A stretch of DNA of 64,000 bases from Candidatus Bathyarchaeota archaeon (GTDB lineage: Archaea; Thermoproteota; Bathyarchaeia; Bathyarchaeales; Bathycorpusculaceae). Made by a program: the position numbers and the translations under genes. This document shows, piece after piece, positions 58,401-61,501 of the stretch (its first letter is position 1; every line of letters starts with the position of its first letter). Below the pieces are notes generated by a model. That model did not search any database. It saw only the letters and a program-made list of their open reading frames with translations, and was not told where the DNA came from. Where the stretch lies: contig CAVZIW010000009.1 in the NCBI GenBank assembly GCA_963775465.1, positions 1-64,000 of the forward strand, written 5' to 3'.

Positions 58401-59003
58401 GAAGGCTTGAGCGTCTAGTTCATTTGCGGCATTTGTAGAATCATTGTCTGAGTGAATTTTCACTTGACTAAGGTCATGTCCCAGTCGATTTTCAAAGTAT
58501 GTGCGATCTGATTCATGTAGTGAGTACCCGCCGCTTTCTGCCAGAGATTTTATCCTTTTCTCCAGTTCTGGCGAAGCAGTTGATGTTGAAATAGACTTAT
58601 CTTTGGCTTGAACGTGTTCTTCTTCCTCTTCTTTTTTTGAAGAGGTTTTTTTCAAGTTCAGTACCTGAAGAGAGACAGTACCATTATGAGTCATATTGAA
58701 TGACCTTAAACCATGAGAGGAGTTGACTTCATGGTTAAGCACTATTTGATCTGCGGTTTGATTTGCTTCTTGTTCGTATTTGTCTTTAGGTTGATTGATT
58801 TTGAATTTAGCTTGTATGAAGTCGGAGGTTATGAGTTTTTGTACGGCTCTGTTGCCAATTGAGTTTTGCAGTTTCAAAACATGATTAACTCCTGGAAAAT
58901 TAGATACATGAGTCTCCGTTTCTTTCGATTTAGTTGAAGCGGCCTGTTTTTCGGTCAGCTCGACTGCTTTTGTTTTTGCAGTAGCAAAACTCATGTGTAC
59001 CAT
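55491..59003 (-). CDS. DUF4157 (eCIS core) domain protein with C-terminal HNH-like toxin domain, split by frameshift(s) at ~57870-57930
   Basis: LQNSIGNRAV, YEQEA, DLSQVKIH, AQAFTRGKDIFFG and LLAHELTHVIQQ; beta-rich middle; tip GDKLAGHE..NPAVAV..H. Confidence 0.82.
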
Positions 59004-59263
59004 ATACTTAGCTTAAACGATATAAGCCTTCTCAATATTTTTTAGTCTTGATTTAGAATGCTCAGTTTCTTGGACCGGAATGAAAAAATATTCAAATAAT
59101 CCGAATCATAATAAATTTTCAGTTCAGTTCAGTTCGATTTCATAATCTAGAAAAGCGTCTATTGTACTACAATTCTCTTCTTCAAGAACAGGTTGAATTT
59201 CCGTCCTAATGGAATTCGTCATTTAAGAAATTAGACTCTCGATTATTTCACAAAGCATGTTTG

Positions 59264-61501
59264 CTAAGGCGGTGGGCTACCTGTTTTCATGAAGGTTTCA
59301 AACCATTGGTATAGAGTGGGCCAATTTGTTCTGAGCCAGGTTGGGTCTAAATTGTAAAGTGCAAAAGCCTCGGGGAACAGTTCATTTGGCGGATTTGTTG
59401 CTGCATACCATGTTAGTGGCTTAATATTGCTCTTTTTTACAAAAGCATCAAATGCACTTTTTACTCCTGGTTTCCAACCTACAAAATGACCTAGTTCATG
59501 ACCGAAAGTTAGCGAAGTATAAGAAAAAATTGCTGGACCTTCTGTACCTTTTCCTCCTAGAAAAATAGCGACTTCGTTTGCTGTTGCTGCGTTGAAAATA
59601 ATTATTGATTGGTCATTTCCGTTAAATAGACTTAATCCCGTACGGTTTGGGTCTTGCTTAAACCCTCGTCCAGCTGGCTCGATCGATATTTCTTGCCGTA
59701 TCATGTGGATTCCCTTAAACGTAGTTAACATATTATCGGATAATGTCTCTATCGTGGATTCTAAAGCAATCAATTCCGAAGTTTCAAAATTCTTCGTGTT
59801 TACTGTTCGTGCTTCTGGGAATTTATGTTTTTGTTTCAGACGACTTTCTCCTTCCAAACTTGAAAGAATTGTGATGCCGTAGTTATTCTGGAACCATTTT
59901 GGCGAGGCAGCATTGTTTCTCAATTGTTCGTTGGCGTTTTTTCGTATTTCATCTACCGTGGTACCGCTCAGGTTAACGTTCGGGTAACGCTTGGTCAACC
60001 AAGTTTTTAGCGCTGCTTCATTCTTTGAGTTGATTCCGAACTCCTTTGCGCGTCCAACATCTAGTTGCGACGTTTTTGTGCTCATGATTTTCTCTTTTTC
60101 TCCAACGCGTTCCACATCAATGTTATTTGTATTTGGTCTAAATCTGAGTGTACACAGTACTTGTTTTGAGCTGTTGGCAACGGGAATAATAGCGTCTACT
60201 TCTGTGTTCCGAGTGCCAGATTGGAAATACTGCCAAATTGCATATTTGACTGAAAGTCGTTCATCAGCTGGTAACTTAGTGATTCCGTTGATCGTTCCCA
60301 ACCTATCTTGTTTCTTTGGGTTCCTTTTGGTTTGAGCTTCTTCGAGTTTCAGATCGACGAAATCTTTTTCTGCATAGTCTGAAGGTGGACCAGCATGAAT
60401 AGGCAGGTTGGATCCTAAGAATGTAATTGTTAAACTTGTGATGCTTCCTTGCGGGTCCTTGGTGCCTTTTGCGTGAAAAGATACTTCTAATTTCTCTTGT
60501 TTTTTGCCTTTTGTGAGGGCTACGCTAATAGGCACAACGTTGTCAAACGTCTGTTCAACATTAGTTTCTATCCAATTGAATAGTCTTTTGTGCTCTTCAG
60601 GATGAGCGGTCCAATATTTTTCAATGTTATTTTCGGGAAAGCCTGAATGGGAATAGCTATTAGGTTCCGTGAACGAGACACTTTTTGGTGAAGCTGCGGA
60701 GATCGGAGCTATTATTGGAGTGCCTTCTGATATCAATACTGCTTCTACAGAGTCTCTTTTTTGCAGTGGTTTTCTGGGTTTAAAAGTGAATTTACAGATT
60801 AAGTTTTTGGAAGCCTTGGCTTTCTCTCTTTTGGGAATTGAGACAATCCGTGAGATTTGACGTGTAATAGATTTTTTTGGCATCAAATGCCAAAGAACTG
60901 ATAAAACTGAATCACGTTTTTCGGTATTGCGGTTAATTCGATCATCCATAATGAGATTATGGATTGTCATAATGCGTTGCTCCCAATAGCTTAAGCTAGA
61001 TGCTTCTTCGATTTTTGTTCGCTCAAAAGTCATACTTTTTGTTTCATATTGCTCCGTCCTTTGACTCTCTTTTTTTCCCGTTATTTCAGGTGTAGTTGTG
61101 CCCTTTTTCTTAGGAGGTTTTTCTTTACTATTCTTTTTCTGTCTTTGGAGTAACGGTATGCCTATTAGTGAAGTATGGTTGGCTTGAGAGATTTCATTTT
61201 TGAATAGCTTTGGCTTTGGGGGTTTAGCTATGTTTTCTGCGATACTATCTGCTTCTTGTTCGTATATGTCTCTTGATTGGTTGATTTTCAGTTTTGCTTG
61301 AGTGTGAATAGAGCTTATGAGTTTTTGTACAGCTCTGTTGCCGATTGAATTCTGCAACTTCAAAACATAATCAATCTGCGAGCTTTCAGAAACTGGTTTT
61401 CTTGCAGTTCTTAGTCCATCAATTGAAGATTTCTGTTTCTTTGAAAGCTCGAGTACAGCTTCAGTAGTGACAAAATTCATACATGTCTTATTGTGTATCA
61501 T
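59264..61501 (-). CDS. Candidate CIS effector: DUF4157-type N-terminal leader plus C-terminal zincin metallopeptidase
   Basis: Leader near-identical to the neighbouring gene; HELGH...ELFPEAFALY..P. Intact 745-aa ORF, likely start 61480. Confidence 0.75.
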   Translation of the reverse strand: MIHNKTCMNFVTTEAVLELSKKQKSSIDGLRTARKPVSESSQIDYVLKLQNSIGNRAVQKLISSIHTQAKLKINQSRDIYEQEADSIAENIAKPPKPKLFKNEISQANHTSLIGIPLLQRQKKNSKEKPPKKKGTTTPEITGKKESQRTEQYETKSMTFERTKIEEASSLSYWEQRIMTIHNLIMDDRINRNTEKRDSVLSVLWHLMPKKSITRQISRIVSIPKREKAKASKNLICKFTFKPRKPLQKRDSVEAVLISEGTPIIAPISAASPKSVSFTEPNSYSHSGFPENNIEKYWTAHPEEHKRLFNWIETNVEQTFDNVVPISVALTKGKKQEKLEVSFHAKGTKDPQGSITSLTITFLGSNLPIHAGPPSDYAEKDFVDLKLEEAQTKRNPKKQDRLGTINGITKLPADERLSVKYAIWQYFQSGTRNTEVDAIIPVANSSKQVLCTLRFRPNTNNIDVERVGEKEKIMSTKTSQLDVGRAKEFGINSKNEAALKTWLTKRYPNVNLSGTTVDEIRKNANEQLRNNAASPKWFQNNYGITILSSLEGESRLKQKHKFPEARTVNTKNFETSELIALESTIETLSDNMLTTFKGIHMIRQEISIEPAGRGFKQDPNRTGLSLFNGNDQSIIIFNAATANEVAIFLGGKGTEGPAIFSYTSLTFGHELGHFVGWKPGVKSAFDAFVKKSNIKPLTWYAATNPPNELFPEAFALYNLDPTWLRTNWPTLYQWFETFMKTGSPPP

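Follow-up and report, generated by a model that had tools for sequence, protein, structure and literature searches.

A conserved N-terminal leader shared by two putative contractile injection system cargo genes, one of them without a DUF4157 core, in a probably decaying archaeal locus

Introduction

Cargo choice by contractile injection systems (CISs) is a bottleneck both for predicting natural toxins and for re-using these systems as protein-delivery tools. In AlgoCIS of Algoriphagus machipongonensis, the closest described system to the locus studied here, the two cargo proteins Cgo1 and Cgo2 share a disordered N-terminal domain and a DUF4157 domain, differ in their C-terminal domains, and fill the tube (Xu et al. 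2022). A recent preprint reports that loading of AlgoCIS requires the N-terminal domain and the ATPase Alg15, while DUF4157 is dispensable (bioRxiv 10.64898/2026.05.27.728243, May 2026). Here we analyze a stretch of 64,000 nucleotides from a Candidatus Bathyarchaeota archaeon (positions 1 to 64,000 of the forward strand of contig CAVZIW010000009.1, here C9, assembly GCA_963775465.1), hereafter the window, in which two neighboring genes, A and B, begin with the same segment of about 90 residues. We call this segment the leader and compare it with the known cargo signals.

The arrangement of gene A, with an N-terminal segment, a DUF4157 core and a variable C-terminal part, is that reported for Cgo1 and Cgo2 (ALPR1_12695 and ALPR1_12690; PMC8894135), and in both AlgoCIS and our locus two cargo genes per cluster share the N-terminal part and differ downstream. 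The AlgoCIS N-terminal domain is predicted to be disordered, and the leader is modeled with low confidence except for the motif 2 helix of A. The separability of N-terminal domain and DUF4157, demonstrated experimentally in AlgoCIS, is what gene B appears to display naturally. Unlike in AlgoCIS, one cargo gene here lacks DUF4157, the other is split into two open reading frames (ORFs), and the machine itself is broken.

A second point of comparison is provided by the signal peptides of the PVC and Afp systems (Pdp1, Pnf, Afp18), described as N-terminal, hydrophilic, transferable tags that act with an AAA+ ATPase to bring payloads into the tube (PMC11297309). The first 35 residues of the leader are likewise hydrophilic. 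However, the PVC and Afp payloads are described as lacking DUF4157 and any detected conserved sequence (PMC11297309), whereas the leader has two conserved, rigidly spaced motifs; also differing from these tags, only 22 of 115 leader relatives have an aromatic residue among their first eight. Danov et al. (2024) likewise report that no conserved signal sequence was detected.

Finally, earlier work recognizes CIS toxins by a DUF4157 or PVC-metallopeptidase domain (Zhang et al. 2012, PMC3482391; Geller et al. 2021, PMC8213781). The toxins described in these two studies combine a constant N-terminal region with variable toxin cassettes, as here, and occur as several paralogues per locus, often without immunity genes, in archaea and bacteria. 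Their toxin domains include an anthrax-lethal-factor-like peptidase, and the C-terminal cargo domain of B may be weakly related to lethal factor in structure. Where these studies take the metallopeptidase as the constant marker, in our case the leader travels with the locus, also without the peptidase.

Results

Genes A (57915-59003, 362 aa) and B (59264-61501, 745 aa, as given by the ORF listing) both lie on the minus strand, and their leaders, residues 1-92 in each, occupy 58728-59003 and 61226-61501. BLASTP of one protein against the other gives a single significant segment (A 1-87 against B 1-91, 46/92 identical, E 7e-19), the next best reaching only E 0.56, which bears out the homologous N-terminal segment of about 85 residues proposed in the initial annotation. 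Within it are two motifs. Motif 1 includes a block of 17 residues that is the same in both proteins (minus strand, 58830-58880 in A and 61316-61366 in B). Motif 2 follows on the same strand at 58743-58814 in A and 61229-61300 in B (QAKLKINQ...YEQEAD...), and the string QAK.KINQ..D.YEQEA, which had been noted after the block, is indeed found in both. Internal methionines, the probable true starts (58994 in A, 61480 in B), place motif 1 at residue 42 in both genes.

The DNA of the motif 1 block differs between A and B at 6 of 51 bases (AAA/AAG, CTG/TTG, CAA/CAG, AAC/AAT, ATT/ATC and GCC/GCT), all synonymous, as first read from the sequence, and all 17 residues are the same. By the Nei-Gojobori method, this amounts to six differences on 11.7 synonymous sites (a proportion, pS, of 0.51) and none on 39.3 non-synonymous sites (pN 0), in agreement with the purifying selection suggested at the outset; given that synonymous sites make up 0.235 of the block, the probability that six random changes would all be synonymous is about 1.7e-4. 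Over the 46 codons of the conserved leader part, the non-synonymous and synonymous divergences (dN and dS, same method) are 0.18 and 0.77, and over the 40 codons preceding the block they are 0.56 and 0.91. Since synonymous sites are near saturation, these values point to old copies kept alike by purifying selection on the protein, not to a recent conversion tract.

Downstream the two genes part, and the HELTH core is found in only one of them, as the initial annotation had it. In A, Pfam identifies eCIS_core (PF13699, DUF4157) at residues 162-237 (58293-58520, minus strand; 98 bits against a cut-off of 22, E 3.5e-28), with the zinc signature HELTHVIQQ (HExxH..Q), in which H224, E225, H228 and Q231 are invariant in 54 sequences. 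After the core comes one small beta domain, the first of a conserved module. The best VIA-align match of the core is the effector domain of VgrG2b from Pseudomonas aeruginosa (6h56_B, Z 7.4, root mean square deviation (rmsd) 4.1, 102 residues, 19% identity), the next row having Z 4.3; Foldseek of the A model against PDB gave no match at E<=0.001. In VgrG2b this domain is fused to a type VI secretion spike and has no such leader ahead of it; the match is uninformative about the leader. In B, Pfam finds neither PF13699 at E 0.1 nor any other family of note, and a core profile hidden Markov model (HMM) built here and run with filters off makes no contact with B even at E 10.

Gene B instead consists of the leader, a linker of about 55 residues and a folded cargo of about 590 residues. 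In an AlphaFold2 (AF2) model built from 11 sequences, residues 1-155 have a predicted local distance difference test (pLDDT) score below 50 and residues 156-745 mostly 80-90. The C-terminal cargo domain holds a HELGH zinc-binding motif (residues 668-672; 59486-59500, minus strand) followed by E707, and H668, E669, H672 and E707 are invariant in the 11 sequences. Foldseek relates this domain weakly to anthrax lethal factor and PPEP-type zincins (E 7e-4 to 1e-2), with template modeling (TM) scores of 0.46-0.54 normalized to the PPEP chains and 0.47 normalized to a 220-residue lethal-factor chain, at an rmsd of 6.5-13 Å; there is no Pfam ATLF match at E 0.1. A weak BLAST similarity near HELGH (E 2.4) raised the possibility of a cryptic core in the C-terminus of B, which we dropped because the core HMM is negative there and the domain is more like the lethal-factor and PPEP-type zincins.

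The cargo of B (query residues 95-745) has ten relatives, all of which contain PF13699. With the HMMs built here, the core is found in 10/10, motif 2 without motif 1 in 8/10 and motif 1 in 0/10. In the alignment, the relatives' core stops just ahead of the conserved start of the cargo, where B has its linker. As all ten cargo relatives have the core and none has the motif 1 of B, the leader seems to follow the locus and not the cargo. Consistent with this, the leaders of A and B are mutual nearest neighbors (72% identity across 46 residues; neither exceeds 63% with any of 130 other leaders). Mean leader identity is 77% within loci (117 pairs) and 64% between loci (8529 pairs); the nearest neighbor lies in the same locus for only 36 of the 90 leaders of multi-leader loci.

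The proposal that leader and DUF4157 core can be separated gains further ground from core-less relatives. We collected 131 complete leader ORFs from 70 genome loci and the window, 99 with the core and 32 without. Half of the latter (16/32) have at least 215 residues after the leader start, and 11 of these 16 keep both motifs. Tandem arrays are common, with at least two leader matches in 32/70 loci. An intact cluster in Methanosarcina sp. DH2 has five tandem leader genes beyond its baseplate genes, one of which encodes an ankyrin-repeat protein that lacks the core and matches the leader HMM through position 88. Because B, other core-less leader ORFs and this ankyrin protein all carry the leader without the core, we take the leader, from these sequence comparisons, to be a module in its own right.

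Searching with residues 1-92 of B against 1.84 billion representative proteins, we obtained 1207 matches at E<=1e-3, from archaea and bacteria, of which the best 150 were inspected. The leader has three parts: an N-terminus of about 40 residues that is hydrophilic, weakly conserved and constrained in length; the amphipathic motif 1, LQxxIGNxAV..L, at residue ~42; and motif 2, QAKLxI..P.D.YEQEAD..A..V, exactly 31 residues further on. Among these best 150, motif 1 (LQxxIGNxA) begins at residue 40-45 in 109 of the 128 methionine-started, motif-bearing proteins (mode 42), and the spacing to YEQEAD is exactly 31 residues in 120 of 123 relatives. The first 35 residues have a mean Kyte-Doolittle value of -1.08, with a net charge of +2.3 over residues 6-21. 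The amphipathic helix signal is strongest over motif 1 in A; in B its peak is shifted to the latter half of motif 1 and the residues that follow directly. In an AF2 model of A built from 54 sequences, residues 1-58 have pLDDT below 50 and the motif 2 helix reaches 86-90; the low confidence of the first part would fit disorder.

Downstream of the leader, Pfam finds PF13699 in 104 of the best 150. Of the 46 without it, 21 have at least 230 residues and one is a piece of B. The C-terminal parts that follow the core are diverse and include deaminases, an endonuclease, a phospholipase, a transglutaminase, YkuD, OmpA, Het-C and metallopeptidases. Related loci are mostly from Methanosarcinales and also from Aminicenantes, Nitrospirota, Acidobacteriota, Cyanobacteria, Bacteroidota and others. 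Some proteins, including some in the Cyanobacteriia sample, repeat YEQEAD internally in two or three copies, and most Cyanobacteriia matches to the leader HMM span motif 2 only (profile positions ~58-95). Motif 2 seems to be the more widespread unit.

The family appears to be uncatalogued as a sequence-defined leader spanning both domains of life. NCBIfam returned nothing meaningful for A, B or the neighboring ORF C, and no Pfam or NCBIfam model covers the leader in A or B. The leader profile against PDB sequences gave a single chance-level match (E 0.28) and no solved relative, an Atlas look-up returned only unnamed clusters of ~100 aa (scores 0.90-0.93), and four leader motif strings were absent from the literature searched by text. 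We consider that the family deserves its own profile.

The occurrence of the leader follows that of CIS genes. The cap gene, recognized by Pvc16_N, was present in 5/5 leader-bearing genomes tested. Across 201 Methanosarcinales genomes, 59 have both leader and Pvc16_N, 12 the leader only, 7 Pvc16_N only and 123 neither, such that Pvc16_N occurs in 59/71 leader-positive against 7/130 leader-negative genomes; across 201 Cyanobacteriia genomes, the corresponding counts are 55, 3, 19 and 124, or 55/58 against 19/143. The odds ratios of 86 and 120, respectively, overstate the independence of these observations, because the sampled genomes are related and many are incomplete. Among the matches listed, at least 30 of the 59 Methanosarcinales genomes positive for both carry leader and Pvc16_N on one contig, 2-27 kb apart. 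A leader confined mainly to genomes without a CIS would have spoken against a role in loading; instead, leader-bearing genomes overwhelmingly carry the cap gene. A scan for further leader genes in the present genome (~2.4 Mb) recovered A and B and no third leader: it holds exactly two leaders and one core. Of five organism-named relatives of a Trm1 gene in the neighborhood, three belong to Ca. Bathyarchaeota.

The cap (terminator) gene of our locus lies at 61621-62202 on the plus strand (PF14065, E 4.2e-37, single genome copy), divergent from B with about 120 bp between them. It is followed on the same strand by a small gene (62177-62698) that is CarboxypepD_reg-like (E 7.8e-07, 29.8 bits, below the Pfam cut-off of 32.3) and by the sheath gene (62841-64000 in the window, extending to C9:64493; 550 aa). 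On the far side of the effector genes, the plus strand of 40871-54817 holds a decayed structural cluster with genes for a tube/LysM protein, a spike with an OB domain (Phage_base_V), PAAR, gp25 and a WHD+AAA ATPase, along with a baseplate region. Each of these five genes is spread over two or three frames, giving about 45 short ORFs with frameshifts and in-frame stops, and the A-B block lies between these broken genes and the cap, sheath and tube genes. Alongside the decayed cluster, the effector ORFs, cap and sheath are intact. The intact Methanosarcina ATPase, which has 723 aa, aligns to the locus in two frames plus a region with in-frame stops. Its cluster has the order ATPase, cap, sheath ... 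baseplate, effectors; the order here differs in that an inverted effector block sits between the ATPase remnant and the cap gene.

Across the genome, just 3 of 477 5-kb bins show such a scarcity of long ORFs; two of the three fall within 40.9-54.8 kb. The genome has a single gp25 gene, which is the split one, and a single cap gene. Homopolymer runs are about as frequent in the decayed cluster (3.1 per kb) as elsewhere (2.7 and 2.4). Assembly error as the cause of the shredded genes is not supported, because homopolymer content is similar, in-frame TAA stops are present and the damage is local.

The initial annotation described two tandem effectors. There are indeed two leader genes; A, however, is incomplete, and its cargo continues in a split-off reading frame, ORF C (55491-57869, minus strand, 792 aa), which has no leader and consists of a conserved module of ~550 aa and a C-terminal domain. 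A and C share one reading frame, and homologues that have both parts fused (1180-1290 aa) align over the junction (57870-57914, minus strand) without a change of frame. A is the front half of a split gene and C is the rest, the two deriving from one ancestral gene. The first ~550 residues of C form a module that is conserved at 50-63% identity and normally sits between DUF4157 and the C-terminal toxin. Read-through or recoding at the junction was considered and rejected, as its 15 in-frame codons hold five stop codons of three kinds. A GGAG-like stretch lies just ahead of the ATG of C. ORF C has 437 homologues. Among the 120 listed, leader and core occur together in 46, the core without the leader in 28, neither in 45 and the leader only in 1. 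Stand-alone forms like C are thus frequent, and the split may be a recurrent one rather than simple decay; it may represent a functional two-gene arrangement or a first step of decay. Residues 560-792 of C (55491-56190, minus strand) have no Pfam match. By language-model features, the closest clusters to the C-terminal domain are nuclease toxins of the pyocin-S, Tox-GHH2, Tox-SHH and AHH kinds, with scores of only 0.89-0.91, and Atlas features hint weakly (0.90-0.91) at an HNH-type nuclease toxin. No immunity-like ORF follows C.

Discussion

Taken as a whole, we read these ~90 residues as the N-terminal leader of DUF4157-class CIS cargo, one that marks its protein as cargo and for which the core is optional, within a locus that is a decaying island, and we give this reading a probability of roughly 70%. 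By analogy with AlgoCIS Cgo1/2 and with work on PVC, we infer that the leader would designate a protein as cargo and bring about its loading: the cluster's AAA+ ATPase would recognize the leader, unfold the cargo and thread it into the lumen of the tube. The DUF4157 zincin that comes next would be an optional accessory, perhaps a processing peptidase. A is a classical leader-core gene, severed from the module and toxin part that is now ORF C, and B is a natural core-less cargo, in which a leader of the locus type is joined directly to a cargo family that elsewhere always comes with its own core. B most likely arose by cassette recombination or by clean deletion of the core.

Several observations weigh against this interpretation. 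The AlgoCIS preprint (bioRxiv 10.64898/2026.05.27.728243) states that loading sequences are not conserved between systems, whereas mean identity between leaders from loci in different phyla is 64% across 46 residues. Since most Cyanobacteriia matches cover motif 2 alone, the leader may be two modules with different roles. Some of the core-less metagenome proteins may be truncated gene calls. As to linkage, the co-occurrence counts are not phylogenetically independent, and 12/71 leader-bearing Methanosarcinales and 3/58 leader-bearing Cyanobacteriia genomes have no Pvc16_N match, although some of these are suspected to be fragmented genomes. A cap, sheath or ATPase gene was found within the flanks of only 10 of the 70 related loci, using single-sequence phmmer with three markers and flanks of up to 10 kb on each side; in the one intact locus mapped, the effectors lie ~19 kb from the cap, and such flanks would often miss these markers. 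Finally, a working machine for the signal is probably lacking in this genome, since the neighboring CIS, including its AAA+ ATPase, is broken as assembled. With the machine rearranged and its baseplate, spike and ATPase genes broken, the selection recorded in the leader would be historical.

One alternative is that the leader, and motif 2 in particular, acts on the DUF4157 zincin within the same protein, as a pro-segment, an inhibitor or a folding helper, and does not select cargo; loading would then rest on the non-conserved first ~40 residues or on some other feature. The AF2 model of A could be read in this way: next to a core with pLDDT above 90, the helix of motif 2 (residues 72-93) reaches 86-90, and motif 1 forms only a low-confidence helix at ~45. 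The pairing of motif 2 with the core in eight of the ten B-cargo relatives that lack motif 1, the Cyanobacteriia matches confined to motif 2 and the internal repeats of motif 2 in some proteins point the same way. We nevertheless think this explanation unlikely: both motifs are kept in 11 of 16 core-less cargo ORFs, motif 2 of B is constrained in a protein without any core, and the core-less Methanosarcina ankyrin protein matches the leader HMM as far as position 88.

Another possibility, to which we assign a similarly low chance, accepts the leader as a cargo signal and places its target in a structural part of the particle (the tube lumen, the spike/PAAR tip or the cap) rather than in the AAA+ ATPase. 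A DUF4157 effector of Streptomyces davawensis is reported to co-purify with spike and tube-initiator proteins (PMC11126660), and in the window the cap gene and B lie next to each other in divergent orientation. However, AlgoCIS loading is reported to require Alg15 and its ATP hydrolysis (bioRxiv 10.64898/2026.05.27.728243), and the PVC signal peptide has been linked to Pvc15. That the similarity is a mere by-product of recent tandem duplication or gene conversion, with no functional meaning, is very improbable despite the adjacency of A and B and their mutually nearest leaders, because the synonymous divergence of the block equals that of its flanks, which marks the copies as old, and the module is found in 1207 representative clusters, archaeal and bacterial alike.

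A wider version of the cargo-leader reading would hold that DUF4157-class CIS cargo in both archaea and bacteria carries a single rigidly spaced leader, that it and not DUF4157 is the constant element read by the machine, and that small locus-specific differences in motif 1 tell to which machine a cargo belongs. We put this forward tentatively, at somewhat less than an even chance. If true, a leader HMM would find cargo that escapes DUF4157 screens, for example ankyrin proteins without a core and peptidases of the B type. A conserved leader would also contrast with published statements that signals of extracellular CISs have no conserved sequence.

The inference drawn at the outset is largely right but not new, and the locus is a further natural instance of the principle described for AlgoCIS. 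It opens no new question, because the AlgoCIS preprint already reports that an N-terminal tag, independent of DUF4157, selects cargo. What the locus adds is a natural control, B, a core-less cargo with its leader under purifying selection, and a large, tightly conserved leader family that is apparently new to catalogues. Because its presence follows that of CIS genes in two lineages that are far apart, the leader could be used to screen sequences for cargo.

Most likely, the locus is a CIS island that was acquired horizontally and is now decaying; the local system is probably dead. The leader was found in 0 of 400 other sampled genomes of the same phylum, which suggests that the island was acquired horizontally and is sporadic in this lineage. 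With a decayed machine beside intact effector ORFs, it makes a small case study of island death. Separately, one metagenome-assembled genome labeled Bathyarchaeia has four leader matches on a 7.3-kb contig.

Beyond the window, the sheath-tube segment ends in unrelated, partly broken genes. In the segment C9:61501-81500, the tube gene that follows the sheath (3002-3448, plus strand) has its conserved N-terminus in frame and no upstream ATG, GTG or TTG, and the three small overlapping ORFs after it (3459-3996) resemble one more broken CIS gene. A second tail-sheath gene elsewhere in the genome (C6:264336-264782, minus strand, in a 387-aa open frame), for which the genome has no second gp25 or cap gene, possibly belongs to a prophage tail. 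Further along C9:61501-81500, the minus strand of 4225-9151 carries TPR and CHAT fragments and then a large Ig-like/invasin-type surface protein gene, broken up into six or more successive ORFs. The remnant of the CIS is thus directly followed by another region of local decay.

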